A stretch of 34,696 bases of DNA, taken from a virus. Below are positions 2,738-34,696 of this stretch, in pieces. Within the stretch, counting starts at the first letter, position 1. Each line of letters starts with the position of its first letter. A model generated the notes under the pieces. The model did no database searches. It was not told the origin of the DNA and saw nothing but the letters and a program-made list of their open reading frames with translations. The translations under genes were made by a program, and so were the position numbers. The DNA is taken from the UHGV virus genome UHGV-0412376, one strand, 5' to 3'.

Positions 2738-2740
2738 ACA

Positions 2741-3352: not shown

Positions 3353-3729
3353 CCACACATCAACACATCATTGACCGGGGCCCCTTCAAGGGGATGGTGG
3401 AAACGATCACCAACAACCCGCACCCCGCAAAGACGACGCGCTGCTACATGTGCGCGGCACCGCTGAAAGCCTCGACATCATGGATGTCCCTGGTAGGAGA
3501 CCATCAGGACGGCGTCTTCACCGCGCGCTTTCTGTGCCAGTTATGCGCCAGGGAACGCCTCAACGGCATCCCTGACGAAGCGGAACGTTGCTGGAACTAT
3601 ACCCAAGCCGCCCAATCAGGGCCCCGGATTACCAAAATCCTCGCTTACCTGATTTTCTGGTGTGGACTGGTTACTGCCGGAGGAACAATCCTCTTCTTAA
3701 TTTTCCTCCTGCTCAAAAACATTTTTTAA
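3349..3729 (+). CDS. Hypothetical Cys4 zinc-ribbon protein with a C-terminal TM helix.
   Basis: CxxC...CxxC pairs (CYMC...CQLC) followed by the hydrophobic tail ILAYLIFWCGLVTAGGTILFLIFLLL. Confidence 0.45.
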   Translation: MTTHQHIIDRGPFKGMVETITNNPHPAKTTRCYMCAAPLKASTSWMSLVGDHQDGVFTARFLCQLCARERLNGIPDEAERCWNYTQAAQSGPRITKILAYLIFWCGLVTAGGTILFLIFLLLKNIF

Positions 3730-3750
3730 CTGATTAACTAAATAAATAAA

Positions 3751-4353: not shown

Positions 4354-4384
4354 ACCCGGCCTGTTAAACACAACATGAACGAAT

Positions 4385-5257: not shown

Positions 5258-5261
5258 ACGC

Positions 5262-6248: not shown

Positions 6249-6889
6249 AAATCTGGCCCTCCTTGGAACAACGTTCGGAAGCTTGGTTCCGTGCCCGTGC
6301 CGGCCGTCTGACAGCCAGCAATTTTCACCGGGTTTTAACTCCCTCGGGAAAAGACTCTTCCCAATGGCGAGAACTTGCCATTGAAATGTGTTGCAGCCGC
6401 ATCCGTCCTGATGAAATACAGTGGGAAGGAAACCGCCACACGGACCGCGGGGAAGAACTGGAACCGGAAGCGCGGGAAGAATTCAGCCGAATCATGGGGC
6501 TGGAAGTGGAACAGGTGGGATTTATCGTCCAAGACAATGAACTGGTGGGCTGCTCCCCTGACGGCATGATCAAGATCAATGGGCAGTACGCGACGGGTGT
6601 GGAGCTGAAATGCCCTCTTGCAAAAAATCACGCGGAATACCTGCTGGACGGCGTATTACCCGTCCAATACAAGGCGCAGGTACACGGTTCCATGATTGTG
6701 ACTGGATTGCCCTACTGGTACTTCATGAGCTACTGCCGGCGTCTCAAGCCCCTGATTTTACGGGTGGAGAGAGACAGCTATACCGACACGCTACAAGATG
6801 CCCTTGAACGGTTTATCATTTATTACGCAGACGTTTATAAGCGCATCATGCCTCAAATCCGTCCGGTTGTAGAAGGGAGGGCTGCATAA
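6245..6889 (+). CDS. YqaJ-like (lambda Exo-type, PD-(D/E)XK) viral recombinase exonuclease.
   Basis: N-terminus PSLEQRSEAWFRARAGRLTASNFHRVL is the YqaJ-family signature. It pairs with the upstream RecT. Confidence 0.8.
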   Translation: MKIWPSLEQRSEAWFRARAGRLTASNFHRVLTPSGKDSSQWRELAIEMCCSRIRPDEIQWEGNRHTDRGEELEPEAREEFSRIMGLEVEQVGFIVQDNELVGCSPDGMIKINGQYATGVELKCPLAKNHAEYLLDGVLPVQYKAQVHGSMIVTGLPYWYFMSYCRRLKPLILRVERDSYTDTLQDALERFIIYYADVYKRIMPQIRPVVEGRAA

Positions 6890-7401
6890 TGAGCAAGCGC
6901 ATCTTAGGCCTTGATCTGTCGCTCACCGCTACAGGCTGGGCGCTGGTGTGGGATGGTTCTCCTAAATGGGGCGTCATCAAATCCAGGAACAGGAGCGTTA
7001 AACGTCTCTCTGAAATCCGCAATGCGGTGCTGGACATCATCAACCAAACACAGCCTTCCCTTGCTGTTATTGAGGGGTATTCCTATGGATCTTCCCATGG
7101 CATGGCCGGGCTGGCGGAATTGGGCGGCGTTATTCGCCTCCTGCTCCTGGACATGGGAATACCTTTCATCGTTGTTGCACCTGCCACCAATAAGAAATTT
7201 GCAACGGGGAAGGGCAATGCGGAAAAGGATTTGATGCTCAAACGCGTTTTTCAGCATTGGGCGGCGGATATGAGCAATAATAACGAGGCGGACGCTTTTG
7301 CCCTGGCCCAGTTTGGCCGCTGCTACCTCAACCAGGAGGGCTTTTGTGATTATCAAACAAAAACCGTTGAAACCTACAAAAGAAAGGAACTCGGAAAATG
7401 A
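6889..7401 (+). CDS. RuvC-like Holliday-junction resolvase.
   Basis: N-terminus ILGLDLSLTATGWALV matches the RuvC-fold IIGIDPG motif. A second match is SLAVIEGYSY with a D/E-rich catalytic pattern. Confidence 0.7.
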   Translation: MSKRILGLDLSLTATGWALVWDGSPKWGVIKSRNRSVKRLSEIRNAVLDIINQTQPSLAVIEGYSYGSSHGMAGLAELGGVIRLLLLDMGIPFIVVAPATNKKFATGKGNAEKDLMLKRVFQHWAADMSNNNEADAFALAQFGRCYLNQEGFCDYQTKTVETYKRKELGK

Positions 7402-7709
7402 GCCCGGAAGAAAGAGAGAAAAAACGGCTCTGGATGGTGGAGTACAACAAACGGAGAAAGTCCGCTTTGGTTGATGATTTAAACGCCAAGTACGGCACCC
7501 ATTTCAGCCTGGGACAGTATATCACCTACAAAGGGGGAAAATATATCATCAGTGGGACTCACGGTCATTTATTAATCATCAAAAATGATAGGCTGGAAAC
7601 TTTAGCGCATCCTCTTGATGTCTACCCGGCTATCAAACTATCCGGCACCGTCACTTTTGACGGCTGGACCATGGGTCCGAACGGAAAACTTAAAATCAAG
7701 AAAGGATAA
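7398..7709 (+). CDS. Hypothetical protein.
   Basis: ORF translationally coupled to its neighbours, with phage-like codon usage. Confidence 0.5.
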   Translation: MSPEEREKKRLWMVEYNKRRKSALVDDLNAKYGTHFSLGQYITYKGGKYIISGTHGHLLIIKNDRLETLAHPLDVYPAIKLSGTVTFDGWTMGPNGKLKIKKG

Positions 7710-7715
7710 ATTAAA

Positions 7716-7997
7716 ATGAACAATGTCTATTGCGACAAACCCGGCCATGGCGCTTACCCGCTCCGGGCTTATGAAAAAGACGGGAAAATTTTTGTGGACA
7801 TGGATTCTTGCACGGAATGCGGGCCGCAGAAAATGGAAGAAGAAGAGGTATATCAGTCCTTTTTGGATAGACTGCGTATCCTTTCCAATCAGCTGAACAG
7901 CCTGAAATGGGATCTGGACGGATTAAAGGATGATAGCGAGTCATTAAAGGATGACGTGGATGAACTGATTAAAGACTATGAAAAAGAAAACGCCTAA
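7716..7997 (+). CDS. Hypothetical protein with a CTECG motif and an acidic C-terminus.
   Basis: ORF on the track. No domain was recognised. Confidence 0.45.
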   Translation: MNNVYCDKPGHGAYPLRAYEKDGKIFVDMDSCTECGPQKMEEEEVYQSFLDRLRILSNQLNSLKWDLDGLKDDSESLKDDVDELIKDYEKENA

Positions 7998-8358
7998 ATG
8001 CCCTATTTGCGGCACACCTTTGAAAGCCATACGAGGATATGATGTCCAGGGGATAACAACCGATTGGGTTGCTGGTTGCTACAACTGCTTCTTCCAGAGT
8101 TCCCATTTTTGGAAAACCAAGAAGGCATGTATTGAAGATATGGATAGGCTTGTTTCTTTGTTTCCGCCCATCATGAGGTGTTGGCCGGGGGACAAGCTCG
8201 TATATAGTGGCAGTATTTATCCCGTTACGATTGTCTCTAAAGACCTTGATTTATGCAAAATAGCCGTTCGCGACTACGCAGGAGACTCTTTCATCATTTA
8301 CTGTGATGAGGTGGATCAATGGCCCTGGGAGCTTGAGCAGAAAGGAGTCCAGCCATGA
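7978..8358 (+). CDS. Hypothetical zinc-ribbon protein with CPICG...CYNC motifs.
   Basis: ORF on the track, with a Cys4 pattern at the N-terminus. Confidence 0.45.
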   Translation: MKKKTPKCPICGTPLKAIRGYDVQGITTDWVAGCYNCFFQSSHFWKTKKACIEDMDRLVSLFPPIMRCWPGDKLVYSGSIYPVTIVSKDLDLCKIAVRDYAGDSFIIYCDEVDQWPWELEQKGVQP

Positions 8359-8459
8359 TAATTATTGATTTATTCGATATTTTAACATTTTCAGTTTTAA
8401 TCATATTGTTAGTTATTCTTATCATTCAATATATTATATTCAAAATAAAAGGAAAATGA
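8355..8459 (+). CDS. Single-TM mini-protein of 34 aa.
   Basis: Strong RBS AAAGGAG 7 nt upstream, with ATGA overlap to the previous stop. The translation is MIIIDLFDILTFSVLIILLVILIIQYIIFKIKGK. It lies in an AT-rich island. Confidence 0.4.
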   Translation: MIIIDLFDILTFSVLIILLVILIIQYIIFKIKGK

Positions 8460-8608
8460 TTTTTGAACTCGCAGAACTTATAGTTGTTTTAAGCTCCATT
8501 TTTTCATTTGGGTATTACCTCCATTTAGCGGGCCAATACAAAGGGTTTCTTAAAGCGATTGAAGTCTACTTAAAATATGAGGAAAAAGAAAATGAAGATA
8601 ACGCCTGA
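8456..8608 (+). CDS. Small hydrophobic/amphipathic protein of 50 aa.
   Basis: ATGA overlap with the preceding mini-ORF. The translation is MIFELAELIVVLSSIFSFGYYLHLAGQYKGFLKAIEVYLKYEEKENEDNA. Confidence 0.3.
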   Translation: MIFELAELIVVLSSIFSFGYYLHLAGQYKGFLKAIEVYLKYEEKENEDNA

Positions 8609-8933
8609 ACAATCAGCTTTTTACGAATATGGATGCGCAAAAATGGCACTCCAAATTAGAATAGGCAATATTCGGGATTTTGCACTAATTGCTTGCCGTA
8701 GATATTATAAGGATATGCTCAAGTCCGAAAGAAAACTTATATGTAATCAACATGCCCTTGGCTTCTTAGTTAAACATCTTCGAGAAAAGCGGGCTGCGTG
8801 CAGGGCGTGGGTGCATCCTATGCGAAGGAGATGCTCGAACTGTAAACATGAGCTAACGCAGTACAAGTTCTGCGCAGCCTGCGTCCATGAAGGATGGCCT
8901 GTTTACTGGGAACCGAGAAAGGAGGGGGAATGA
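8592..8933 (+). CDS. Hypothetical Cys-rich protein.
   Basis: ATG at 8592 with GAGG upstream. The C-terminal region CSNCKHELTQYKFCAACVHEGWP looks like a zinc-binding cluster. Confidence 0.45.
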   Translation: MKITPEQSAFYEYGCAKMALQIRIGNIRDFALIACRRYYKDMLKSERKLICNQHALGFLVKHLREKRAACRAWVHPMRRRCSNCKHELTQYKFCAACVHEGWPVYWEPRKEGE

Positions 8934-9400
8934 AAGCCATTCTTGACGCCTGTTGCGGCTCCCGCATGTTCTGGTTTGACCGCCACCACCCTGACGTGGT
9001 GTTCATGGACCGCCGGGAGGAAACGCACACGCTTTGTGACGGGCGAACCCTGGAAATCAAGCCGGACGTCGTCGGGGACTTCCGGGAGATGCCTTTCAGC
9101 GACGGGGCGTTTCGCCTTGTCGTGTTCGACCCTCCGCACCTGATTCACGCCGGGGAATCGTCCTGGCTGTCCAAGAAGTACGGAAAGCTGGACCGGAAGA
9201 CATGGAGGGATGATTTGAAGGCCGGCTTCCGGGAGTGTTTCCGGGTTTTGGAACCGGGCGGCGTTCTGGTGTTCAAATGGTGCGAGGATCAGGTTTCAAC
9301 CGCAGAAGTGCTGAAACTGGCCAGCCATGAACCTTTGTTCGGACACCGCCGCGGGAAGACCGTCTTCCTGGTATTTATGAAATCTACAACCCCCAACTGA
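8930..9400 (+). CDS. Small phage DNA methyltransferase carrying a DPPH variant of the catalytic motif.
   Basis: LDACCGSRMFWF resembles the SAM-binding motif I. VVFDPPH resembles motif IV (DPPY-like). RBS GAGGGGG precedes the ATG at 8930. Confidence 0.6.
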   Translation: MKAILDACCGSRMFWFDRHHPDVVFMDRREETHTLCDGRTLEIKPDVVGDFREMPFSDGAFRLVVFDPPHLIHAGESSWLSKKYGKLDRKTWRDDLKAGFRECFRVLEPGGVLVFKWCEDQVSTAEVLKLASHEPLFGHRRGKTVFLVFMKSTTPN

Positions 9401-9407
9401 CGCTTTT

Positions 9408-10409
9408 TTGATTATGGCCGGAGACTGGATCAAGGTTGAACACACGACGCCCGACAAACCGGAAGTGGTGAAGCTGGCAGGCATCCTTGGCATTGATCAG
9501 GATGCCGTGGTTGGCAAGCTTCTTCGCCTTTGGATTTGGGCCGATCAGCAATCCGTCTCTGGTAACGCCATCACCGTTACAAATTCGTTTCTCGACCGTC
9601 TCGTATTCTGCCCCGGTTTCGCCGCCGGGCTTGTCAAAGTCGGCTGGTTGAATGGACGCGAGGGCCTCCTTTCAATCCCCAATTTTGACCGCCACAACGG
9701 CCAAACCGCCAAAAATAGGGCCAATACGAACCGCCGTGTTGCGAATAGTAGAAAAGCTCATAATGAGCGAGTTACAAAAACATGTAACGAAAATGTAACG
9801 CTTGGAGCGTTACAAAAACCGTTACCAGAGAAGAGAAGAGAAGAGAATAAACAAGAAAATAATGCAGGGGGATATAACACGGTGGTTTGTAGCGAGCCGC
9901 CAACTGATCCTGCCTCCCCTATCCCGAACCGGGAACGCTTGAACGATGTCCGGGGGATTCGCTGCGCCGACAACCATGCGGACCTGGGATCTTCTCCCGG
10001 CGCTGCCCGGTTCGTGGCAGCGTGCCTGGACATCAATCCGTCCTGGGTCCGGACGATACCAACCGCCATTGAGACGGCGGCCGCGCTTGAGGCGTACCGG
10101 TCCGCGCAGGGGCGGGTGACGCCGCGGGATATGGAGATGCTCAAGGATTACTACGCCAGCGGCTTGACTCATGACCGGAGCAATAAGGCTTTTTGGAGGC
10201 CAGACAGCAGGCGCAAGTTCTGGGAGTGCTTCGGCGACGTTTTGACGCATGCCGACAGGTGGGCTAAGGAGACGCGTTGGAAGCCGGCAGCATCCCGCAA
10301 GAAACCGAAACCCGAAGAACCACGGCAGCCGGAAGGGCCCGTTGTGGATGTCGCGGACGCTGCGGCGGAGATCGCATCTCTTCGGGAGGAAATGGGACTG
10401 GGAGGATGA
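9408..10409 (+). CDS. Replication initiator / replisome-organizer-like protein with iterons embedded in its gene.
   Basis: N-terminus GDWIKVEHTTPDKPEVVKLAGILGIDQDAVVGKLLRLWIWADQQ...GLLSIPNFDRHNG resembles phage replisome-organizer N-terminal domains. An AT-rich iteron block lies at 9768-9864. Confidence 0.45.
   Translation: MIMAGDWIKVEHTTPDKPEVVKLAGILGIDQDAVVGKLLRLWIWADQQSVSGNAITVTNSFLDRLVFCPGFAAGLVKVGWLNGREGLLSIPNFDRHNGQTAKNRANTNRRVANSRKAHNERVTKTCNENVTLGALQKPLPEKRREENKQENNAGGYNTVVCSEPPTDPASPIPNRERLNDVRGIRCADNHADLGSSPGAARFVAACLDINPSWVRTIPTAIETAAALEAYRSAQGRVTPRDMEMLKDYYASGLTHDRSNKAFWRPDSRRKFWECFGDVLTHADRWAKETRWKPAASRKKPKPEEPRQPEGPVVDVADAAAEIASLREEMGLGG
9768..9864. promoter_or_regulatory. Putative phage origin of replication: iteron-like GTAACG/CGTTAC repeats plus an A-rich tract, inside the replication gene.
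   Basis: GTTACAAAAAC occurs twice, TGTAACG occurs twice, and there is a perfect palindrome GTAACGC-ttgga-GCGTTAC. (AAGAG)x3 follows, then an A-rich run. This low-GC patch sits inside a roughly 60% GC gene. Confidence 0.4.
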
Positions 10410-10559
10410 AGGATAAGCGACTGTATCCACCTTGAATCTTGATTCCGTTTCCTTGAACCAGTAAACTTCAACCGCAGGAAAAAGAAAGCATCACCCACAA
10501 CCAAAAGAAAGCCGGGGAGGCCGAGCCTCTACACCGAGGATTTAGCCCAGGAGATAGCC

Positions 10560-10991
10560 GTGCGGCTAGCCAATGGCGAAACCATGAAAGCCATCTGCGC
10601 CGACAACCACATGCCGGACGTCTGGACAGTCTGGAACTGGCGGCAAACCAGGCCGGAGTTTTCCCAGCTCATTCAACGCGCGCGGGAAGCGCAATCGGAA
10701 GCCATGCTTGACGCCTGCCAGGAGCTGGCCGACGAGGCCGCGAAAGTCGCCCTCGACCCGGAATGCGGCTCCGCTGCTGTCGCCGCCAAAAAGCTGGCCA
10801 TCGAAACGCGGTTGAAAGTCGCCGCCCGATTCGCGCCGGAAAAATTCGGCGACCGGGTCCGTCAGGATGTCGCCGGCGTTCCCGGCGCGCCGCTGGAACG
10901 GAAAATCACCCTGGACCCCGAGCAGCTGGCCCAGCTGCAGGAAGACGAGAAAACCGCGCTGGAAACCATCGCCGGCAAACTCCACGCTTAA
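10560..10991 (+). CDS. terS: Terminase small subunit. The true N-terminus probably extends upstream to about 10443.
   Basis: The in-frame upstream sequence KRKPGRPSLYTEDLAQEIAVRLANGETMKAIC is the canonical HTH N-terminus of this terminase small-subunit family. The GTG at 10560 is the first canonical start. Confidence 0.65.
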   Translation: MRLANGETMKAICADNHMPDVWTVWNWRQTRPEFSQLIQRAREAQSEAMLDACQELADEAAKVALDPECGSAAVAAKKLAIETRLKVAARFAPEKFGDRVRQDVAGVPGAPLERKITLDPEQLAQLQEDEKTALETIAGKLHA

Positions 10992-11063
10992 CAGACCAGG
11001 ACACGCCTCCCCGTCAGCTTCTTCCTCCGCCATGTCCTCCGACTGGATCCCTATCCCTGGCAG

Positions 11064-12371
11064 GTGGAGGCCATCAAGGCGTTGTCCCTCGGCAAGCTGA
11101 CCCTGGGAGGGAAAAGCGTGGCTCTGGTCGCTCCCAACGGATCCGGCAAGACGAGCAACTGCATCGCTCCGGCCATCCTGTACTTCCTTACCTGCTTCCC
11201 GCGGGGTCAGGTGCCGGTCACGTCGTCGTCGTGGATGCAGGTGGAAAAGCAGCTCTTTCCCGCGCTCCGCCGCTACATGGACAATCCCTTCTTTGACGGC
11301 TGGACATTCAACAAAACCGAGATTCGCACGCCGGAGGGAGGATTTGCCGTGGGCTTCTCGACCGACAACGCCGGCCGCGCGGAAGGATGGCACCCGAAAA
11401 TCTCGCCCGACGTGGACCCCGTCTTTTACGTCCTCGACGAGGCCAAAACCATCCCGGACTCCATCTTCACCGCCGTTTCCCGCTGCACGCTCTTCCACGC
11501 GTTCATCACCTCGTCGCCGGGAGCCGATTCCGGCACCTTCTACGACTGCTTCCACAAAAATTCATCCCTCTACTACAAGATCCGCGTCAAATACGAGGAT
11601 TGCCCCCACATTGAGATCAATGACCCGGGCAAGGCCGAGCGCCTGAAAAAAGAATACGGCGAACAGTCCTCCTTCTACCGCTCCGCCATCCTCGGCGAAT
11701 TCACCGATCTCGACGGTCAGTCCGTCATTCCCCGGCGCGCCCTCATGGATCTGGTCAACAACCCGCCTCCCTTTCTGGACACCGGGGAGACCTGCGGCGG
11801 CTTCGACTTCGCGGCCGGGGGTGATGAAAACGTCTTTGCGGCCGGGCAGGGCAACCGATTCTTCATCGCCGACCACTGGTCGGACCCGGACACCGTAGGA
11901 GCGCGCGGACGGTTCCGCCGCAGGGCGTCCGAACTCGGCATCCCCGCCGACCGCATTTACGCGGACGGAGACGGCCTTGGACTCCCCATCATTGACGACT
12001 TCCGCGCCGAGGGCTTCCCGGTGCACTCCTACCGGGGCGGCTTCCCGGCTGACGATACTCAGGCCTTTGTCAACCTCCGCGCCCAGGCGTGGCGGGCCCT
12101 GGCACGCGCCATCGAAGAAAAAGAACTCATCCTCGAAATTGACGAGGATACGATTGAGCAACTGGTTGCTCCACGGCTTCAAACCGACGCAATAGGCCGC
12201 GTCCGCATCGAAAGCAAGGAAGATATGGCAAAGCGGGGCGTTCGTTCCCCAGACCGGGCTGACGCCCTCGTCATGGCCTGGCACGCGCGCCGGAACAGCG
12301 GACTGGCGCGGACGCTTGGAGCCTGGTACGCCCGGCCCGTGTCATCAAAACGCGCTTACGGAAGATATTAG
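11064..12371 (+). CDS. terL: Terminase large subunit (ATPase plus nuclease).
   Basis: Walker A motif VAPNGSGKTS and Walker B motif VLDEAK. The conserved DPYPWQ motif lies in frame upstream of the called GTG. Confidence 0.85.
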   Translation: MEAIKALSLGKLTLGGKSVALVAPNGSGKTSNCIAPAILYFLTCFPRGQVPVTSSSWMQVEKQLFPALRRYMDNPFFDGWTFNKTEIRTPEGGFAVGFSTDNAGRAEGWHPKISPDVDPVFYVLDEAKTIPDSIFTAVSRCTLFHAFITSSPGADSGTFYDCFHKNSSLYYKIRVKYEDCPHIEINDPGKAERLKKEYGEQSSFYRSAILGEFTDLDGQSVIPRRALMDLVNNPPPFLDTGETCGGFDFAAGGDENVFAAGQGNRFFIADHWSDPDTVGARGRFRRRASELGIPADRIYADGDGLGLPIIDDFRAEGFPVHSYRGGFPADDTQAFVNLRAQAWRALARAIEEKELILEIDEDTIEQLVAPRLQTDAIGRVRIESKEDMAKRGVRSPDRADALVMAWHARRNSGLARTLGAWYARPVSSKRAYGRY

Positions 12372-12373
12372 GG

Positions 12374-12402
12374 TTGACAATATATCAACGTATCAATATA
12401 TG
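12374..12402 (+). promoter_or_regulatory. Sigma70-like promoter candidate for the tRNA (TTGACA, 17-nt spacer, TATATG).
   Basis: Read directly from the sequence; it ends about 15 nt upstream of the tRNA 5' end. Confidence 0.3.
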
Positions 12403-12418
12403 AAGATATGTAATTAAT

Positions 12419-12492
12419 CGCAGGGTGGTGAAACGGTATCACGCGGGGTTCCTGTCCCCGAATCGAAGGTCCAACTCCTTCCCCTGCAACCA
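12419..12492 (+). tRNA. tRNA-Arg (anticodon CCU)-like gene with an encoded CCA end and several non-canonical positions.
   Basis: Hand-folded cloverleaf: acceptor pairs 2-7 with 66-71, U8, and D-stem GTGA/TCAC with loop AACGGTA (A14, G18, G19, A21). The anticodon stem CGGGG/CCCCG carries loop TTCCTGT (U33, anticodon CCT). The T-stem is GAAGG/CCTTC with loop TCCAACT (G53:C61, C56, A58), followed by discriminator A and CCA. The oddities are a C1-A72 mismatch, C55 and G37. Confidence 0.5.
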
Positions 12493-12614
12493 AACTTTTC
12501 CTTTCTTTTCGCCGCAGGTTTAACGCCGTCAAAAATATCCTCAACGCCCCGAAGCTGGTCGCCCAACAGGAGACCAGAATCAAGGATCTTGAAACGGAAC
12601 TCACCCGGCGAGCG

Positions 12615-13880
12615 TTGACGGAACAGAGCCGGAAGCCTAACCGGCCACAGTGGTACGAATACTGGGATCCGTTACAGGGAGCCGACCTGCAAACCCTGAT
12701 TGACGCCCGGAACGAAGCGCGGCGTGGAGCCTTTGCCCGCCAGATGCTCATCTGGGACGAGGTCATCTATTCGGACGGGCTGCTGGGCATGCTCTACTCC
12801 CGGCTCATTGAAAGCGTTTCCATGCAGGGATGGAAGATTGACGCCGCGGACGACAGCCCGGAAGCGCAGAGCCAGAAAAACGCGCTGGAAGAATTCTATC
12901 ACTCCGTCACCGGACTTCAACAGGCTTTCGGTCAGCTGGCTTCCGCCATGTTCTACGGTTACGCCCACCTCCAATACATTGAGGACGCCTGGGGCCGCCG
13001 CTTTGAATTCATCCCCCAACGCTATTGGGTCCGCCCCGGCGCGCTGAATGAATGGCAGTTCAACCCCCAGTGCTACATTGGGGTCGACACAGGGGAAAGC
13101 GTGGAAGAAGAAACGCTCGTGATCATGGAGCACCGGAACCCCATTCTTTTCCCGGCAACCCGCGCCTCTTTTGAGCGCAACCACGCCAAAGTGACGTGGG
13201 ACAACCACATGGACCGCTACGGAAGCGCCCCTGCCATCATCACGGCTCCCAAAGACGCGAGCCCCGCCATCATGGACGCGCTGGAACGGGCCTGTGAGCA
13301 GCTTAAATCCGGCGCATCCATCGTGCTGCCTCCAGTCTGCACCGCGGAACCGTTGAAAGCCTCCAACATCAACGAAAACTATTTCCTATCCCGCATCAAC
13401 ATGGCCGACAAGGACCAGGTGCGGTTTGTGATGGCCGGCACCCTGACCGTTCTGAATGAATCAGGATCCGGCACGCTGGCCGGGGGAGCGCACACGGATA
13501 GCTGGAATTCGGTCGTCTCCGCGGTCTGTTCCAAGGTCGCCGAAGCTTTTAACGCCGCCATCAGCCCGCTTGTTCTGGGAGACGGCGAACCGCTGGCCAG
13601 GCTCCACATCACCTTTGACACCGTCCAGACGCCGCTGCAGAAGGCCGAGGAAATTGCCGCCCTTTCCGACGGAGGCGTCCGCCCCGAGAAGACCGAAATC
13701 GAAGAAAAGATCGGCATGTCGATCGAGGACACGCGGGACCCCGTTCCGGTGACGGAGGCGGCCAACAGGGAGCCGGAAAAGGCCATCATTCCTCCCGATG
13801 CTTATGAACAGCTGCAGCAAATGATTTACGCCGGCCTCATGAAAGGATTTACCGATGATCAGTACGAAACAAATCAATGA
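12615..13880 (+). CDS. Portal protein, possibly Mu gp29/DUF935-like.
   Basis: 421-aa ORF immediately downstream of the terminase large subunit, followed by a protease/scaffold gene. The start is TTG at 12615; the upstream in-frame region is open but has no ATG. Confidence 0.65.
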   Translation: MTEQSRKPNRPQWYEYWDPLQGADLQTLIDARNEARRGAFARQMLIWDEVIYSDGLLGMLYSRLIESVSMQGWKIDAADDSPEAQSQKNALEEFYHSVTGLQQAFGQLASAMFYGYAHLQYIEDAWGRRFEFIPQRYWVRPGALNEWQFNPQCYIGVDTGESVEEETLVIMEHRNPILFPATRASFERNHAKVTWDNHMDRYGSAPAIITAPKDASPAIMDALERACEQLKSGASIVLPPVCTAEPLKASNINENYFLSRINMADKDQVRFVMAGTLTVLNESGSGTLAGGAHTDSWNSVVSAVCSKVAEAFNAAISPLVLGDGEPLARLHITFDTVQTPLQKAEEIAALSDGGVRPEKTEIEEKIGMSIEDTRDPVPVTEAANREPEKAIIPPDAYEQLQQMIYAGLMKGFTDDQYETNQ

Positions 13881-14970
13881 CCTGTCCCGACCTGCCAACG
13901 GCTGGTTCCACATTGAGAAGAGCGGAGACCATGACGTCGACTACGGCGAAGGACCCGCCGTGCTGCGCATCGACGAGCAGGCGATCCGGGACATGGTGGA
14001 CGACTTCAACGCCCGTACCTTTGACGGCCCGGGCATGCTCATCGACGGCGACCACCTGAGCCACGACCTTTCCCGCGATACGCGCGCGCTTGGATGGCTC
14101 AAGAGGCTGGACACCTACCGCGACCCTTCCGGCACGCTGGAACTCTACGGTTTCATCGAATGGACGCCGCGCGGCCTGAAGATGCTCGAGGACAAGGAAT
14201 ACACGCAGTCATCCACGGAATACGGCGAAGGGATGACCTTGACGGACGGCGTTTACCGACCGTCGCGCCTGACCGGCTTCGCCCTGACCAACCGGCCGCG
14301 CATCAAAGGAAAGCGGCCGCTGGTCAACAGACAGACTTCCCCCGCCTCCGACGAGGCCGGGGGCGACACCAAAAGCCCCACTGAAGAGGGGGAAACAAAC
14401 CAGAAAACTAATATGGACAACGACGATAGAGAATATCCGTCCAAGGAAATGGACAAGGCCCAGCGGGCCCTGTTCGATTCCCTGCTTGACAAGCTGGATG
14501 TCGAATTTGACGGCACCGACGATATGAGCAGGGCGATCCTCGGACGCCTTGACGAACTGCTCTCGCTGGAAAAGCGTGAGAAAGACCACGTGAACGCCGA
14601 AGTGGACGACGCCGTCAGCACGTACGAAAACGCGCTGGACGAAGAAGAACGCAAGGAATTCACGGAAGAACGCCGGGAAGAGCTGAAAAACTCTCTCCGG
14701 GAAAGCCCCGCCGCGCTGGACGCCTTTGTCAGGGCGCTCAACCGCCAGACTCAGCCCAAGAACAAAGAGGAGACGGAAAGGAAAGATCCGCCGAAAAGGC
14801 AGCCCCTGAACCGCCGCGCTACCCTGACGCCTCCCAACCCATTCCGCAAGAAGGAATCCATTGACGGATTCAACAACCGCGTGAACGAACTGATCAAGGA
14901 CGGCATGAAGCGCTATGACGCCTACCAGAAAGCGACCGAAGAAGGCTTCATTGTCTCCGCCAACCGATAA
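13855..14970 (+). CDS. Prohead protease/scaffold fusion, Mu gpI-like.
   Basis: N-terminus ANGWFHIEKSGDH...MLIDGDHLSHD resembles the Mu I protein N-terminal pattern. The C-terminal half is a highly charged coiled coil, as expected of a scaffold. Confidence 0.55.
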   Translation: MISTKQINDLSRPANGWFHIEKSGDHDVDYGEGPAVLRIDEQAIRDMVDDFNARTFDGPGMLIDGDHLSHDLSRDTRALGWLKRLDTYRDPSGTLELYGFIEWTPRGLKMLEDKEYTQSSTEYGEGMTLTDGVYRPSRLTGFALTNRPRIKGKRPLVNRQTSPASDEAGGDTKSPTEEGETNQKTNMDNDDREYPSKEMDKAQRALFDSLLDKLDVEFDGTDDMSRAILGRLDELLSLEKREKDHVNAEVDDAVSTYENALDEEERKEFTEERREELKNSLRESPAALDAFVRALNRQTQPKNKEETERKDPPKRQPLNRRATLTPPNPFRKKESIDGFNNRVNELIKDGMKRYDAYQKATEEGFIVSANR

Positions 14971-14988
14971 CTCAATCCATATCAACAA

Positions 14989-15420
14989 ATGCCATCACTC
15001 AACGTAACCCAGAAAAGCGCCATCGTCTATTTCAACGCCCCGGAAGGCGTTGACCTGTGCGGACAGGAAGGAACCGTCGTGGCGCTGACCGCCAATCCTG
15101 ACATCCCCGAATTTGTTGGGACTCCATTGTCCGCCATTCCTACGCAGACGCAGCTGCTAGGCGTCGTCCTGCAGGGACAGCCCAACAAGGGAACCTGCGT
15201 CGCCGCGCTCGTCGGCATGTATGCCGGCCTCATCAAGGCGGCTCTATCCGACACGCCCGGAACCATCAACGCCGGAACGCCCGTCACCATCACGGCCAAC
15301 GGGACATGGAAGGCCGCCGCCAGCGGCGACACCGTCTATGCCCGCGTTATTCATGCCCAGTGGGAACAGGGCCTTGTGGAAATCGGATTCGTCCCGTCCT
15401 ACCAGGTCGCCGCAGCCTAA
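14989..15420 (+). CDS. Small Gly/Ala/Thr-rich head protein, possibly a decoration protein (DUF2190-like).
   Basis: 143-aa beta-rich ORF lying between the protease/scaffold and the capsid gene. Confidence 0.4.
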   Translation: MPSLNVTQKSAIVYFNAPEGVDLCGQEGTVVALTANPDIPEFVGTPLSAIPTQTQLLGVVLQGQPNKGTCVAALVGMYAGLIKAALSDTPGTINAGTPVTITANGTWKAAASGDTVYARVIHAQWEQGLVEIGFVPSYQVAAA

Positions 15421-15640
15421 CTATTAACCCCAACCAACAGAAAGACCAAGAACAAGGGCTACTCCATTTTGCTCCGCCGTTCAGTTCACCGATATCCTGA
15501 CCTCCTATTCCGCGGGGTCCGGGAACACCGAAGAGAACTCCATCATCAGCCGCATCGCTCCGATCGTCCCGGTCTATGACCTGAATTTCCAGTACAAGGT
15601 CTGGGACACGGAAGCGGCCTTCACCGTCCAGCCCATCCAG

Positions 15641-16381
15641 GTGGGACCGGGCGAACCTCCCCGCCAGACCGTCCTGCGCGGAAGAAACGAAACAGACACC
15701 CTTCAGGGCTACGGCTTGACGCTGCCCATCCCTGACGCCTTGCTGGGCGTCAACCGGGAAAAGGCGCAGGCCATCACCCTGGCGGAATACAAACTCATCG
15801 AATCGCAGTTTGTGACGTCGTACGAATACGAACGCGCCAAGCTCCTGATGAGCCAGCTTCCGGCCGCTTCCGGGATGGGTGACTGGGCCAACCAGCAGAA
15901 AAACCCGTTGGCGGATCTGGACCAGGCGATCCTGTCCATCAACGCCGCAACCGGACACATGCCGAACACGATTGTCTTCGGAATCAACGCGTGGCAGCTG
16001 CTTCGCTCCAACACTCTCGCGCGCCAGGTGGTTTCCTTCAACAGCGTCGGCCTGTTCAACGAAGACCTTCTTCGCATGGCTCTGATCCGTCCTATCCGGG
16101 ATATTTACATCGCGTCCATGCCGTACCGCGACGCTTCCGGCGACGCGAAAACCATCATGGAAAACGAAGTCTATGTTCTGTACAAGGAAGATTCCCCGAC
16201 GCAGTTCGACGCTTCCGCCGTTAAAACCTTCGGGCTTTCCGGCAAGCTTCGCCGCGAAGTCATCACCGAATACAAGCCGACGCCGGCCTTGACGCTCGTC
16301 ACCAACCGGGTCTACTCGCTGACCAAGCTGACCAACCCCGGCGCCATCATCCGCATCGACGCGACGGCCTCCTCCGATTAA
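15641..16381 (+). CDS. Major capsid protein. The N-terminus probably extends upstream to about 15500.
   Basis: It follows the protease/scaffold gene. The in-frame upstream region 15500-15640 has no stop and no canonical start (see findings). Confidence 0.5.
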   Translation: MGPGEPPRQTVLRGRNETDTLQGYGLTLPIPDALLGVNREKAQAITLAEYKLIESQFVTSYEYERAKLLMSQLPAASGMGDWANQQKNPLADLDQAILSINAATGHMPNTIVFGINAWQLLRSNTLARQVVSFNSVGLFNEDLLRMALIRPIRDIYIASMPYRDASGDAKTIMENEVYVLYKEDSPTQFDASAVKTFGLSGKLRREVITEYKPTPALTLVTNRVYSLTKLTNPGAIIRIDATASSD

Positions 16382-16400
16382 CCCCAACCCCGCCTCCATC

Positions 16401-16877
16401 ATGTCCGCCTTTCCTGCCTGGTCCACGATTTCCACCGACGAAGCCGATCGGCTGCTCGGCCTCAACACCGCCGAACGCGACGCCCTGGTGACCGCCGGGG
16501 AGCAGCGCAGCCTGGACTATCGGGACGTCATGATGGAGGCGGTCAACGATGTCTGCATGACCATCCGCGGGGCGCTGGCCAACAACCTCGCCCTGCGGCA
16601 ATCCCTACAAAACAGCGGCATGTACGACATCCCGCAAAGCATGCGGTCACTGGCATGGCCGCTAATCATCCGGCAGCTCTACCTGCGCTACCAGATCAAC
16701 CTGACCGAGACGCGCCAGAAGGCCGCCGAATCGGCGGACGCGATGCTGGCGCTCTACGCCAAAGGGGACATGCTGCCGGAAAGCGTGGACGGTTCCGCGC
16801 CCGCGGATCCCGCCTACATGATGCCGCGCTACACGCGCCGCCCCTGGTTCAACCCCATGCGAAGCACCTACCGATGA
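16401..16877 (+). CDS. Head completion / connector-associated protein (hypothetical).
   Basis: 158-aa ORF directly after the capsid gene. Confidence 0.45.
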   Translation: MSAFPAWSTISTDEADRLLGLNTAERDALVTAGEQRSLDYRDVMMEAVNDVCMTIRGALANNLALRQSLQNSGMYDIPQSMRSLAWPLIIRQLYLRYQINLTETRQKAAESADAMLALYAKGDMLPESVDGSAPADPAYMMPRYTRRPWFNPMRSTYR

Positions 16878-18010
16878 TGACCGCCGCCCAGATGGAGATG
16901 ATCGCCAACGACTACGCCGAACGCGCCTTCTTCGTGTCCGGGGTAGAACCCGGCGTCATCCTGTCCGATTTCGAGGACAAGGCGTCCCAGGTCGCCTCGG
17001 GGGCCTTGAGCTACGAGGAAGCGCAGCAGGCCATCCGCGCAACCCTGCGCCAGCAGGGCTACCGCCCCCCGGCGACGGGGCAGGGAGGCATTCAGGATTT
17101 GTCCTCCTGGGTCCGTATCCAGGTCGTCATGGAAACAAACGCGGCCATGGCCCACGGCTACCGGAACTGGTACAACTGGACGATGGACGACGACACGGCC
17201 GCCTTCAAATTTTACCGCTCCCAGGGGCGGGAAGACCCGCGCTATTGGGCCGAACGCTGGAACCGTGCCCGGGCCGGGCTGGAAGAAGAAGCCACGGAAG
17301 CGGTATCATCCGGCTTCATCCGCGGCGAGATCGTCGGCTATGCGCTGGCGGCCTCCGATATCTGGATCCGTCTCTCGCGGTTCGGAACGCCTTACCCGCC
17401 CTTTGACTACCTGTCCGGCATGAACATCGCCCCCGTGGGCGCCGAAGAAGCCCGCGCGGCCGGTCTGGACGTGTCGCGCGTCCGTCCCGCTCCCGCCAGC
17501 TTCAACGCCACGTTGGAAAGCAACGCCAAAGGCGTGACGGAATCCAACAAGAAGAAGATCCGCCGCATCCTGAAAGACGCCGTGCGCGTCAAGGCCGGGA
17601 ACGACGGCAATACCACCTTTACCTACACGGACCCGAACGGGACGCGCCCTTACACGGACGCGGAACTGGCGGACGTCCTGTCCGGGGATTTCCCGGAAGA
17701 GATCCCCTTGCGGCAGGCCCAGGCCTTCCGCCTGGCGGCAGCCGGGGGAGCCGTGGCCGGAACGCTGGCGGCCCTCTACCTGGACCGACTGCTGGACCGC
17801 CTGTTCTCCGAGCCAGAAGGCGTCTGGTACGCCCGGCCCGCGGACGTGGCCGCCGCGTCCTCCCGCCAGTATATCCCCGTTTCCCGGAAGGAAGAGGGGG
17901 AATTCACCTGGCGCCTTGCCTCCGGGCACGTCAAAAAAGTGGAAGACGTCGCCGGAGCTCTCCGCGTGGAACTTCCAACCCCTTATGTTTTGCCCGTCAA
18001 ATGGCTGTAA
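16874..18010 (+). CDS. Structural protein (hypothetical). The ATG at 16874 is preferred over the track start at 16655.
   Basis: The ATGATGA junction with the upstream stop gives translational coupling. Using the 16655 start would create a 220-bp overlap with the upstream gene. Confidence 0.5.
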   Translation: MMTAAQMEMIANDYAERAFFVSGVEPGVILSDFEDKASQVASGALSYEEAQQAIRATLRQQGYRPPATGQGGIQDLSSWVRIQVVMETNAAMAHGYRNWYNWTMDDDTAAFKFYRSQGREDPRYWAERWNRARAGLEEEATEAVSSGFIRGEIVGYALAASDIWIRLSRFGTPYPPFDYLSGMNIAPVGAEEARAAGLDVSRVRPAPASFNATLESNAKGVTESNKKKIRRILKDAVRVKAGNDGNTTFTYTDPNGTRPYTDAELADVLSGDFPEEIPLRQAQAFRLAAAGGAVAGTLAALYLDRLLDRLFSEPEGVWYARPADVAAASSRQYIPVSRKEEGEFTWRLASGHVKKVEDVAGALRVELPTPYVLPVKWL

Positions 18011-18669
18011 CCATCCATATCGACAAGACCGCGATTGACCGGGCGTTTGCCGAGATGGAGCCGTCCGCGGCCCGGCACAAAACCGCCCTCCGCAAGGCCG
18101 GAGTCGCCCTGAGTCTGCTTATCCAGGAAACCCTGCGCCAGCAGGGCAAGGACTACTACGATAGCGCGGCGGACGCCACCGCCATGGAAGAAACCGCCGA
18201 GGGCGTCAGCGTCTCCATTGCCTGGCGCGGTATCGGCCTGCACTGGCTCGGCACCCAGGGCTATTTGGGCGGCCCGCTCCGGCCCACGGGGCGCACCTCG
18301 GAAATCACGGGGCAGCCGATCCAAAACCTCGCGATTCCCACCATCAACGCCCCGCGCGGGCATGGAGGGGCCCGGAGCATTTACAGCGCCGGGTTCCGCA
18401 AAGACGATTTACAATTCATCCCGTCCAGAAACGGAGGACGCAACGGCAATGTGACCGGCGTCCTCATCCTCAAGACGGCGCAGTCGTCCACCGGAAAGAA
18501 AGCGGCCCGGAAGCTGTTCCGCAAAGGAGCCAGAACCGGGGACGTCCTCTACGTGCTTTGCCGCGAAGTCACGATCCCGCCCACGCCGGGGATCCTCCCG
18601 ACGCTGGACCGGATGGCGCAGCGCGCCGCGGAAACCTACCTTGCCAACATCGTAAACAACGAACCATGA
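18001..18669 (+). CDS. Hypothetical structural protein in the head-tail joining region.
   Basis: 222-aa ORF with coupled stops and starts. Confidence 0.5.
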   Translation: MAVTIHIDKTAIDRAFAEMEPSAARHKTALRKAGVALSLLIQETLRQQGKDYYDSAADATAMEETAEGVSVSIAWRGIGLHWLGTQGYLGGPLRPTGRTSEITGQPIQNLAIPTINAPRGHGGARSIYSAGFRKDDLQFIPSRNGGRNGNVTGVLILKTAQSSTGKKAARKLFRKGARTGDVLYVLCREVTIPPTPGILPTLDRMAQRAAETYLANIVNNEP

Positions 18670-32052: not shown

Positions 32053-33240
32053 CTAACGGGCCAGTCCGACGGCAATCTTGCTCATGGCCTCCTGAACGTC
32101 CGCCGAATCCGGGCGGAAATACACCCGTTCAATCTCTTCGGAGTCGTGGCCGACGATGAAGCGGCACAAATCCGGGGACACACCGGCCAGGCGCAGGACG
32201 GTCACGGCGGTCGCCCGTAGGCTGTGGAAGCTCTTTTCCGAAAGCCGGTGCCGGTCGCCTCTCACTTCCCCGGGCATCTCTCGGATGATTCCGTACGTTT
32301 TCAATAACGTCGTGAACTCCGTGGAAAGCTTGTCGGAACGTCCGCCGGCATGGGCATGGCGAAGCGCGGCCAGGGGAAACACATAATCGTTCACCCGGTT
32401 GACCAGACGCCTTTCCAGAACCTCTTTCAAGGGTTGGATGATCGGCTTGTTCATGCGGCGCCGGCTCTTCTGCGTGGTCATGAACAGGAAGGAGTTCTTC
32501 AGGTCAATCTGGTCCCATTTCAGCGTCGCCAGGTCTCCGAGGCGCTGTCCTCCGGTGTAGAGGCACACCCGCACCAGATCCGGCCATTCATCCGGGAACC
32601 GTTCAATGATGGTGTTCACTTCCTCCATGGTGAAGGCGCCGCGCAACTGCTTTTCCGCCTGGTGGTCCGCCCGGGAAGGCATGACGCCCCGGAACGGATT
32701 CCGGGAAAGGATCTCCCGGTCTACAGCGATATTGAACGCGGTGGACAGCGTGGACACATAGCGGATGACGGTTCCGGCGGAAACGCGCTCCATTTCCGTT
32801 TCTACAAAATCCTTCGCCATCCCTTTATTCAGGGCGGCCAGCGGCATATTCCGCCGGTCCCCCAGGAACGCCAGAAGCCGGCGGACGGCCATGCCGTCCC
32901 GCTCATAGGCCCGCTTCTTGTTTTTCCTCCCGTCCAGCCAGTCAAAAAGGAACCGCGTCACCGTCATGCCGTTCATGGTGGCTTTCAGCACGCCGGCCTG
33001 GTCCCCGGCAATGGCCTTCACCTTGTCCAGGTCAAAAACCCCGTACCGGGCTTCTTTCTCCATCTCCTGGGCCACCAGCCGCGCCCGTGCTTCATTCTGG
33101 GACATGACCGATTTCTTATTGGCTCCCGGAAGAAGCGCCTTGGGAACCACGTCGATGCCGGTGGTCTTCCGAAGCTCTTTGCCGTCCAGGGAGCGGAAGA
33201 CGGCCACCCATTTGTTGTTGCGTTTGATGATGCCTGCCAT
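32053..33240 (-). CDS. int: Tyrosine-type phage integrase.
   Basis: C-terminal catalytic signature: ...LGDLATLKWDQIDL..., FHSLRATAV (HxLR) and GHDSEEIERVYFRPD (catalytic Tyr). It occupies the terminal position on the opposite strand. Confidence 0.9.
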   Translation of the reverse strand: MAGIIKRNNKWVAVFRSLDGKELRKTTGIDVVPKALLPGANKKSVMSQNEARARLVAQEMEKEARYGVFDLDKVKAIAGDQAGVLKATMNGMTVTRFLFDWLDGRKNKKRAYERDGMAVRRLLAFLGDRRNMPLAALNKGMAKDFVETEMERVSAGTVIRYVSTLSTAFNIAVDREILSRNPFRGVMPSRADHQAEKQLRGAFTMEEVNTIIERFPDEWPDLVRVCLYTGGQRLGDLATLKWDQIDLKNSFLFMTTQKSRRRMNKPIIQPLKEVLERRLVNRVNDYVFPLAALRHAHAGGRSDKLSTEFTTLLKTYGIIREMPGEVRGDRHRLSEKSFHSLRATAVTVLRLAGVSPDLCRFIVGHDSEEIERVYFRPDSADVQEAMSKIAVGLAR

Positions 33241-33282: not shown

Positions 33283-33531
33283 GGCGCTTTTTTCTGTCAG
33301 GCGCTTTCAGGTGCGCTCAAAACTGCGCAAAATGTAGGAAAATCAAGGGTCATTCCGTCACGTGCTGACGAGAATTGGCATCGCGTACGGGATTTAGCGT
33401 CTTGTCCATAAGTTTTTAACGGGTCACCTGTACAGCATACCGTATAGCACTGCCAGAAAGCCGCATCCACGGATGCAGGAGTATGTAAAGGGAGACATGT
33501 CATGACACAGAAAAAATGAACCCTCGCACAT

Positions 33532-33562
33532 AAAAACCGCCCGCGTCTCCCGACGCAGGCGG
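33532..33562 (-). terminator. Rho-independent terminator for - strand transcripts entering from the right.
   Basis: An 11-bp GC-rich stem with one mismatch (CCGCCCGCGTC...GACGCAGGCGG) and a 4-nt loop. On the - strand it is followed by TTTTT. Confidence 0.5.
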
Positions 33563-33656
33563 AAAAAGAATGAATAGAAAGGATCCTTATTCAGGAAAGC
33601 ACTTTTATATCACATTCTCATCGTTTTTCAATCATTTTGACAGGATTTCCTAGAGA

Positions 33657-33986
33657 TTAAACATATTTTTGAACTGATTTTACCATGTACCCAACGAGGG
33701 TTGATAAAAATCCAGTAGTCATGATGTACCGTTTCTCTTCTACAATCCAGCACCATTTTTCAGGGAGAACGTAATTTAAAGTAAGCGTCGCCAATGCTAC
33801 TATGCAACAAATAACAGCGGTAACCAGCACCCATTTCCAAGCCTGATGCACAGTATGCTTTTTCTCTTTTTCCAAAGCTACTTCATCTCTTTTAGTTTCC
33901 TCTTCTATTTTTTCTATTGTCGGCACAGGCGGAGCCTTGTCCGAATTTACCAAGGCTTTGATCTGGTCATCTAGTTTGGTAGTCAT
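33657..33986 (-). CDS. Small membrane protein; putative toxin partner of the Panacea-domain protein (PanT-like).
   Basis: 109 aa with a charged N-terminus, then the TM helix WKWVLVTAVICCIVALATLTLNYVL and a second hydrophobic segment. Its ATG lies 4 nt after the upstream stop, giving translational coupling. Confidence 0.5.
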   Translation of the reverse strand: MTTKLDDQIKALVNSDKAPPVPTIEKIEEETKRDEVALEKEKKHTVHQAWKWVLVTAVICCIVALATLTLNYVLPEKWCWIVEEKRYIMTTGFLSTLVGYMVKSVQKYV

Positions 33987-33990
33987 TTTT

Positions 33991-34467
33991 TCAAGAAGCA
34001 GAGGGGGTCAGCATTCGGTCAAAATAAATAGCCATTTGCCAGAGGGGGATACGCGAATACTTTTTTTTCTCCCAAGCAGCAGCCCAAGGGGAGTTTGGTT
34101 GGTGAGAAAGTTCCACTAACTGGGGAGCACTCAATTTCCCAAGCTTGTCTACAACATTTTTGATTACATTTTTAGCGTCTTCATCGTCTGTAATCGCGTC
34201 AGGAGATGCTAAAAATCCGGTGATTGGGGTATCTCCCAAATGTTTCAGTTTTTTATAAAGTTCAGGAATGACGGGGCCATAAGTCCATGCTTGGATTTCT
34301 TCTGTAAATAGAGGGTGTTCTAATTGTTTCAGGGCGAATCCCTGCACGAAATAAGCCAGCTTCTGAATTTTCATGTTAGTTACAGATAAGCCTTGCTGCC
34401 AAGCTTCGGTTAATATCTGGTTGGCTATTGCCTCGATGCTATAGGATTTATATTCTATTTTGCACAT
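33991..34467 (-). CDS. Panacea-domain (DUF4065, SocA/PanA-like) antitoxin-type protein.
   Basis: N-terminus ANQILTEAWQQGLSVTNMKIQKLAYFVQGFALKQLEHPLFTEEIQAWTYGPVIPELYKKLK matches the Panacea pattern (..a.....g..vt..KLqKLlYyaqg..L.....pLf.e.ieAW.yGPVvpe.Y). Confidence 0.65.
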   Translation of the reverse strand: MCKIEYKSYSIEAIANQILTEAWQQGLSVTNMKIQKLAYFVQGFALKQLEHPLFTEEIQAWTYGPVIPELYKKLKHLGDTPITGFLASPDAITDDEDAKNVIKNVVDKLGKLSAPQLVELSHQPNSPWAAAWEKKKYSRIPLWQMAIYFDRMLTPSAS

Positions 34468-34684
34468 GTCTCAAGGGGCTGGGATGAACCTATAATATCA
34501 TTGGACCAATAAGCAAGACAAACGTTTCATTAGCCTGCATAGGAGTTCCTGCATACACAACTGGCATCTTTCAATGATTTCATGGAATGTCATGACTTGT
34601 CATCCGGTGAACGGGAAATTGATGACAAAACGTCTTAACGGGGTCACAAGACATCAAATCTCATGAAAAACTGGAAATCCTACC

Positions 34685-34696
34685 CCCCCCCCCCCC
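34685..34696. repeat. Poly-C homopolymer of at least 12 nt at the window edge.
   Basis: Read directly from the sequence; the window ends inside the run. Confidence 0.6.

Follow-up and report, generated by a model that had tools for sequence, protein, structure and literature searches.

The window analyzed here, the whole 34,696-nt sequence of the virus genome UHGV-0412376, carries two adjoining genes on its minus strand, panA and a candidate panT, which probably encode a genuine toxin and the PanA protein that neutralizes it, i.e., a toxin-antitoxin (TA) module of the PanAT type (type II-like). It is well supported that the pair belongs to a known kind of system with an uncatalogued family of membrane partners, and that it does not represent a new kind of system. 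The window is the genome of a temperate Akkermansia phage (82% nucleotide identity to Akkermansia phage DTMo-2021a), complete, circularly permuted, and in the excised configuration: position 34696 abuts position 1 in every relative, and the contig break of the window falls in a poly-C/G homopolymer. The positions of all features, together with the loci of relatives (labeled L001 to L053), are collected in Table 1.

A Panacea protein gene precedes the gene of a small membrane protein

An earlier note on this DNA, made from its letters, had assigned the product of the upstream gene to the Panacea (DUF4065) domain, and profile searches bore this out. The protein scored 68 bits with Pfam PF13274 (SocA_Panacea; cutoff, 25.7; E 1.7e-18), the match spanning amino acids (aa) 34 to 128 and positions 1 to 112 of the 113 in the profile. 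Further matches were to PHROG_1281 (E 8e-40) and to the NCBIfam entry SocA_antitoxin NF047745 (116.7 bits, E 8.5e-34), the latter below the equivalog cutoff of 190. The tripeptide GPV is the Panacea signature and is reported to be critical for neutralization (PMC8832971). It was found as YGPV at aa 63 to 66, invariant among close relatives, and GPV or GPI was kept in every PanA sequence retrieved. PanA had neither an extra N-terminal domain nor a DNA-binding domain, and a PDB sequence search with it returned no meaningful match.

The stop codon of panA and the ATG of the partner gene, on the same strand, are parted by 4 nt, AAAA. Validated PanAT pairs likewise have the antitoxin first, with gaps of −26 to +22 (Kurata Dataset S1, PMC8832971), so that the gene order and tight coupling emphasized in the earlier note agree with PanA-PanT modules. 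The published in silico criteria for PanAT comprise a gap of ≤100 nt, conservation in ≥2 species, and an operon of ≤3 genes (PMC8832971). Here, a Panacea domain with GPV, a same-strand gap of ≤100 nt, an occurrence in ≥2 species, and an operon of ≤3 genes were all found. The operon comprises 2 genes in the window and in relatives at most a repressor, panA, and the partner, with varying upstream neighbors. The species spread covers A. muciniphila isolates, two other Akkermansia sp. metagenome-assembled genomes (MAGs), and metagenomic loci whose taxon was inferred from composition only.

The N terminus of the partner (aa 1 to 48) is charged, with 9 K/R and 11 D/E residues. It is followed by a strong transmembrane segment, TM1, at aa ∼50 to 73 (Kyte-Doolittle [KD] peak, 2.55), and by a loop, LPEKWCWIVEEKR, that holds the conserved motif LPExWCW. 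A second helix (aa 83 to 108) is rich in G/S/T, terminates in SVQKY, and is weakly hydrophobic, its KD profile peaking at 1.07 when taken over 19 residues and at 1.47 over 15. AlphaFold2 (AF2) modeled a helix-loop-helix protein with helices at aa 3 to 13, 24 to 73, and 83 to 108, at a low mean predicted local distance difference test score (pLDDT) of 61.5 with a 5-sequence and 67.0 with a 19-sequence alignment. A Foldseek search of BFVD with this model found nothing at E ≤ 0.001. Hence, of the "two-TM" description given in the earlier note, TM1 is secure, and the half that concerns helix 2 is not. The protein may form a two-TM hairpin with both termini inside, which would be compatible with the positive-inside rule.

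Purifying selection was evident for both genes. Nei-Gojobori estimates from 5 alleles, in which dS (the synonymous rate) was near or beyond saturation between subfamilies, gave ratios of nonsynonymous to synonymous rates (dN/dS) of 0.03 to 0.10 for panA and 0.13 to 0.27 for the partner. Together with the motifs kept in relatives, these values showed that the small open reading frame (ORF) is coding, as the earlier note had presumed. No family in Pfam, NCBIfam, PHROG, or PADLOC matched the partner above threshold. This result, together with the lack of detectable homology to an Escherichia coli PanT (see below), is in line with the suggestion that the partner has no known relative and may belong to an undescribed PanT family. 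A match to CrgA (PF06781) reached 23.7 bits against a cutoff of 24.8, and any match at all was seen in 4 of the 19 family members scanned. Because the matches stayed below threshold and were confined to 4 close members, CrgA was rejected as a likely compositional or topological likeness.

The pair is inherited as a unit

A word-indexed search with the small protein returned 5 clusters, exclusively from Akkermansia. A profile search run exhaustively over 1.84 billion representatives extended the family by ∼15 metagenomic clusters (88 to 150 aa, 18 to 36% identity). Frame and length were preserved across >20 clusters, and a common set of motifs was kept down to 18% identity: TK[FL]D..I near the N terminus, KKHxVH before TM1, LPExWCW after TM1, and GYMxxSVQK[FY] at the C terminus. 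A genome scan anchored on the window protein and a metagenome scan gave no tblastn-confirmed loci, and IMG/VR contributed 2 to 4 relevant contigs.

Genomic context was retrieved for 8 lineages. A Panacea gene lay immediately upstream in all 8, and in all partner relatives with readable upstream DNA, in keeping with the conserved co-occurrence that the earlier note had expected of homologs. In L028, an apparent absence of the upstream panA turned out to be a gene that was present and merely uncalled. The two genes overlapped by up to 26 nt or were parted by up to 6 nt, with ATGA-type overlaps in relatives. The remote partner loci (35 to 49% GC) were found outside phages in unrelated contexts, namely, islands of restriction-modification (RM), insertion sequence (IS), and defense genes. 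The pair could be followed to a depth of ∼30 to 35% identity for PanA and ∼22 to 30% for the partner. Across loci, the alignment scores of the two proteins covaried (Spearman 0.82), and panA and its partner are therefore inherited as a unit. This covariation is compatible with a complex of the two proteins, but is no proof of one.

The window's own allele is widespread. The identical 109-aa protein occurred in 850 blocks of an assembly collection and the identical 158-aa PanA in 768, including complete A. muciniphila genomes, and the 109-aa gene followed panA in 10 of the 10 distinct places listed. Akkermansia was absent from the TA-like rows of Kurata Dataset S1 as consulted here (PMC8832971), and for the A. 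muciniphila type strain NetFlax gives 0 TAs.

Two of the relatives (L028 and L029) carry tandem Panacea modules adjoining an IS1595 transposase. In L029 (265 to 2061), as in L028, a 159-aa PanA and a 119-aa partner are followed by a 142-aa PanA and a 154-aa protein without family match.

The pair probably forms a transcription unit of its own

Downstream of the candidate panT, the minus-strand terminator (33562 to 33537) has a stem of 11 bp, 9 of them GC, ahead of a run of T. Its folding energy was −24.6 kcal/mol (z = −4.8), and none of 200 shuffled sequences was as stable. Relative to the att junction, it stays with the prophage. At the other end, the sigma-70-like promoter candidate lies 18 to 25 nt upstream of the panA ATG. 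The promoter element, ACGTTTGGCTTGCC..ATTATAGG, was conserved in ∼87%-identity relatives, and the same element was present within the 75-nt spacer between the S24 repressor gene and panA in a 74%-identity subfamily, the other flanking DNA of which is unrelated. Since the element is kept where flanking DNA differs, the module apparently has a promoter of its own. This promoter-like element, with the stable terminator, thus upholds the earlier assignment of the pair to an independent transcription unit, set off from the integrase gene (int) by a minus-strand terminator.

The repeats that had been noticed upstream of panA are present, but the autoregulation read from them did not stand up. The direct repeat CCTGCATA occurs twice (34534 to 34541 and 34548 to 34555); as a regulatory site it was rejected, its duplication not being conserved in ∼87%-identity relatives. 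The inverted repeat has invariant arms and a variable spacer across relatives. It is located ∼75 to 110 nt further upstream than the promoter candidate, in the divergent phage control region, and is missing upstream of panA in the S24-type relatives with the same proximal promoter. Panacea is probably no transcriptional autoregulator (Ernits et al. 2023, PMC10440598). Autoregulation was rejected because of this view, the lack of a DNA-binding domain in PanA, and the absence of the repeat from the S24-type relatives. The inverted repeat is probably an operator of a phage early or immunity regulator rather than a site of TA autoregulation.

Other elements were seen in the same intergenic DNA. 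The poly-C run at 34683 to 34696, which continues at position 1, is a real homopolymer; relatives have G8 to G16 there. This poly-G tract is part of the divergent control region, ∼295 nt long, that separates panA from the early genes, and many contigs break in the tract, including the window. It could be phase variable by slipped-strand mispairing, or simply prone to sequencing errors. Beyond it, a conserved 48-aa hydrophobic ORF without family match (MSGNVMLVFFLLAVLFGFTCFRLGIIEGCRR...; 67 to 213, plus strand) runs divergently from panA. Most relatives, among them the prophage remnant L021, have kept this ORF along with the pair; in L020, it is cut partway. A distinct, highly conserved leader, common to otherwise diverged loci, was found in the ∼100 nt upstream of panA in L026, L027, L050, and L051 (...CTTGAGTGTxACGGTAAC...GGTGGAGCACAGGTGGTTCGACTTCACCG..AACTGTCTATAAAAG.AAAGGAGATAAGCCATG), with a possible stem, GGTGGAG/CTTCACC, before a canonical Shine-Dalgarno sequence.

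Natural lesions affect both genes in one lineage

In one lineage (L008 to L011, at least 3 independent samples), the pair has suffered two separate lesions. One is a 967-nt deletion, joining window positions 34064 and 336, that takes away panA codons 1 to 134, the promoter and control region, and the divergent 48-aa ORF. The other is a 70-nt deletion between CCAGCACC direct repeats (33747 and 33817) of the partner gene, by which TM1 is lost and the frame is shifted; a 93-aa homolog (P0005) is this same partner gene in its frameshifted form. The 241 nt between both lesions are 100% identical to the window. In addition, int has an in-frame internal deletion (aa ∼170 to 304), confirmed solely in the N-free contigs L009 and L010, since L008 contains a run of N (a scaffold gap) in int. 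The lesions of the lineage map to window positions 32560 to 32970, 33747 to 33824, and 34065 to 34696 plus 1 to 335, and it may represent a nonintegrating derivative of this phage. TA logic predicts just such a loss of the antitoxin together with an inactivated toxin.

Conversely preserved copies were seen in the degraded prophage remnants L020 and L021, which retain the pair at 98 to 99% identity at the prfA site. The internal deletions of L020/L021 correspond to window positions ∼186 to 18388 and ∼1012 to 9909.

Position of the pair in the phage and the prophage

The match of the window to all integrated copies ends at 33376, between the start of int (33240) and the stop of the small ORF (33657). 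Integration had taken place at two host sites, upstream of prfA-prmC-priA or of thiS-mutL, and the phage-side junction sequence was the same at both (...CCCGTACGCGATGCCA). In lysogens, the pair and int occupy opposite ends of the prophage, with the pair pointing out into the host DNA. The GC content was 0.40 to 0.43 over positions 33501 to 34500, versus 0.58 to 0.63 for int and its neighbors; the phage early region is equally AT-rich, so that the pair is not alone in its low GC. Thus, the earlier placement of the pair in AT-rich DNA at the att region was right, while its position next to int applies solely to the excised circle.

The sieB-like gene lies on the lysogenic minus strand amid early genes of the plus strand, i.e., on the same strand as the pair. 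A plus-strand ORF overlapping it (834 to 1343) had no family match and is probably spurious. The structural and packaging region contains a tRNA-Arg (CCT) gene (12419 to 12492, plus strand).

TABLE 1 Features of the window and arrangement of the pair in the loci of relatives (genes in order of reading)
Feature or locus type	Window position or loci	Strand	Basis or arrangement
panA, 158-aa standalone Panacea/DUF4065 antitoxin-type protein	33991..34467	-	Pfam PF13274, YGPV
Candidate panT, 109-aa membrane protein	33657..33986	-	ORF, hydropathy, AF2
Intrinsic terminator closing the panA-panT unit	33537..33562	-	∼95 nt past the panT stop
Sigma-70-like promoter candidate	34492..34521	-	-35 TTGTCT, 18-nt spacer, TG-extended -10 TATTAT; consensus scan
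Operator-like inverted repeat TTGTCATC-N16-GATGACAA	34597-34604 / 34621-34628		Sequence repeat search
attP crossover, phage-side edge	33370..33398		BLAST of L012-L024 vs window
SieB superinfection-exclusion homolog	843-1328, within ORF 843-1577	-	Pfam PF14163, 69 bits
Window's own allele in integrated prophages	L019-L024		As in the window
89%-identity relatives	L012-L017		panA (158 aa) > partner (109 aa); 4-nt gap
S24-repressor type	L001-L007, L018		S24 repressor > panA (162 aa) > partner (112 aa); 8-nt overlap
Helix-turn-helix (HTH)-CI type	L050-L053		CI-type repressor > 175-aa gene > panA > partner; 4-nt gap
Other Akkermansia sp. MAGs (two)	L026, L027		panA > partner (144 aa); 6-nt gap
Tandem Panacea modules	L028, L029		panA (159 aa) > partner (119 aa), 26-nt overlap, then second Panacea module
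P4-cII / IS1595 / RM context, 35% GC	L030		panA (160 aa) > partner (118 aa); 8-nt overlap
Eco57I + T5orf172 context	L031-L033		panA (170 aa) > partner (113 aa); 4-nt gap

Weighing of a TA module against other explanations

Several observations speak against a TA module. Helix 2 of the partner is weakly hydrophobic and the confidence of the AF2 model is low, and the single validated membrane PanT compared with the partner resembles it neither in sequence nor in profile. Among 25 predicted PanAT pairs tested by Kurata et al., 9 were validated, and 8 predicted PanTs were nontoxic in E. coli (PMC8832971). Moreover, the sheep-cecum MAG L026 has a CGA>TGA change at panA codon 73 next to an intact partner; this could be a true counterexample, a sequencing error, or a loss compensated by a W>R exchange and other substitutions in the partner. 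Finally, int has an internal deletion in the L008 to L011 lineage, and a relaxation of selection on the lysogeny module as a whole, as an alternative to TA logic, could account for the double lesion.

A different explanation is a two-component exclusion or sensor complex that is not a TA system and whose membrane protein would be a nontoxic anchor or effector, e.g., blocking DNA entry of superinfecting phages. The presence of the pair in immunity regions beside CI-type repressors and SieB would suit such a complex, as would the tolerance of the panA nonsense codon in L026, the nontoxic PanTs mentioned above, and the finding that about half of DUF4065 proteins lie outside TA-like loci (PMC8832971). 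Tight antitoxin-first coupling and a stand-alone pair in nonphage RM and defense islands are, however, typical of TA systems, and the sole truncated partner allele found coincides with the loss of panA. We therefore regard an exclusion complex of this kind as unlikely. Even less probable is a SocAB-like type VI system, in which PanA, instead of blocking the toxin by binding, would be an adaptor that hands it to a protease such as ClpXP. Among NCBIfam entries, SocA_antitoxin matches PanA best, and two modes of neutralization need not exclude each other (PMC8832971), but the score falls far below the equivalog cutoff, the membrane-protein partner has no SocB-related match, and neither ClpXP nor Lon is needed for neutralization by validated PanAs, which form complexes with their toxins (PMC8832971).

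The helix-loop-helix topology of the partner is also holin-like, and weak matches to Phage_holin_3_6 (E 0.003) were obtained for 2 of the 19 family members. In P0008-type phages, furthermore, an Amidase_3 gene follows 0.5 to 1 kb downstream, so that the partner might be a holin- or antiholin-like protein of lysis timing and PanA its regulator. Against this, the partner does not lie beside an endolysin gene: the window region that matches the relatives' amidase block is at ∼23 to 25.6 kb, ∼10 kb from the pair, and in L052 another small ORF is directly upstream of the amidase gene. The pair also occurs outside phages, and it stands with or next to repressor genes in lysogenic orientation. A holin was rejected as the identity of the partner, and a role in lysis timing seems very improbable. 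One might also take the 109-aa ORF for a product of chance in AT-rich DNA or for a gene in decay, given its lack of a curated family and the small, mostly metagenomic membership of its own family. However, its low dN/dS (at saturated dS), the motifs shared by remote members, and the preservation of frame and length across clusters effectively refute this idea and leave it next to no probability. A toxin neutralized by PanA is consequently the explanation that we prefer.

Proposed mode of action

As a PanAT module, the pair would be cargo of a temperate Akkermansia phage that is expressed during lysogeny, and the junction of stop, AAAA, and ATG would fit translational coupling of the two genes. 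The 109-aa protein would insert into the inner membrane via TM1, leaving its charged 48-aa N terminus in the cytoplasm, and helix 2 would either recross the membrane or lie on it. Validated membrane PanTs depolarize cells, with or without permeabilization (PMC8832971), and oligomers of the partner may depolarize or permeabilize the membrane in the same way. In Bartonella choladocola, the standalone Panacea contacts PanT at its unstructured N terminus and at the short helix ahead of the TM region (PMC10440598). By analogy, PanA may bind the cytoplasmic juxtamembrane segment at the N terminus of the toxin, which holds the motifs TK[FL]D..I and KKHxVH. More speculatively, PanA could serve as a sensor that is inactivated by a competing phage infection or by loss of the element; the toxin thus freed would then bring about abortive infection or exclusion, or stabilize the element. 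We favor abortive infection or exclusion over pure addiction because of the CI-repressor neighbors, the nearby SieB, and the relatives in RM and defense islands, but this is the least certain part of the proposal.

If the pair does work as a TA or abortive infection module, it would bear on how stably the prophage is kept, on competition among phages, and on the strain dynamics of a gut commensal of therapeutic relevance. It sits in a very common prophage of A. muciniphila, the type strain of which has no TA in NetFlax. The putative toxin would offer a compact membrane scaffold (core of ∼60 residues) with clear conserved motifs, and the lineage with deleted panA and deleted TM1 provides natural control alleles for experiments. 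A bolder proposal, which we consider possible but rather doubtful, is that the partner founds a new family of PanA-linked membrane toxins, marked by a conserved periplasmic LPExWCW loop and a G/S/T-rich second helix, that acts as a switch for abortive infection or exclusion in lysogens, perhaps modulated by the length-variable poly-G tract (through expression of the pair or of the divergent early genes), and that ranks among the most prevalent defense modules brought by prophages to Akkermansia, a keystone commensal of the human gut.

Comparison with known systems

The closest likeness is to PanAT modules with a membrane PanT (E. coli T3, Bartonella apis/choladocola T12/D11; PMC8832971, PMC10440598), which share the standalone GPV Panacea antitoxin and the antitoxin-first bicistron with a gap or overlap of few nucleotides. 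E. coli phage PhiR47_1 has an annotated PanA/PanT pair at the edge of its genome, similar to the prophage-edge location seen here. Its PanA is 33% identical to that of the window (E 5e-28), and its PanT has the same layout of a charged N terminus and a C-terminal TM region. Comparison of the partner with PanT clusters was made with the E. coli membrane PanT (cluster T3) alone, and gave no detectable homology (BLASTP E 16, hhalign probability 3.4%). The window partner differs from the PhiR47_1 PanT in length (109 versus 182 aa) and in motifs of its own (KKHxVH, LPExWCW, and GYMxxSVQK), and the host phylum of the pair, Verrucomicrobiota, is unlike that of the PanATs compared. Because PanA pairs with dozens of unrelated toxins (hyperpromiscuity), a new family of PanT partners is expected and not surprising.

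In SocAB of Caulobacter, the antitoxin belongs to the same Panacea fold family, and SocA_antitoxin gives the best NCBIfam match of PanA. PanA scores below the SocA equivalog cutoff, though, its partner is a membrane protein and not the DnaN-targeting SocB, and an adaptor mechanism is not indicated. With lambda cI-rexA-rexB and the sieB of P22 and lambdoid phages, the module shares its position, in that the pair of relatives directly follows a CI or S24 repressor on the lysogenic strand, and the rex-type logic of a soluble component with a membrane effector that possibly collapses the membrane potential. RexA, RexB, and SieB show no homology to the pair. RexB has four TM segments, whereas the window partner has one to two helices, and the window module, by contrast to rex and sieB, is also found outside phages. 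CapRel(SJ46) is likewise a TA-type defense borne by a prophage, and bicistronic CapRel toxins neutralized by Panacea proteins exist. The C-terminal antitoxin-like region of CapRel(SJ46) is reported to sense a phage capsid protein (PMC9712102). CapRel is a fused toxSAS enzyme that targets tRNA, whereas the effector encoded in the window is a small membrane protein.

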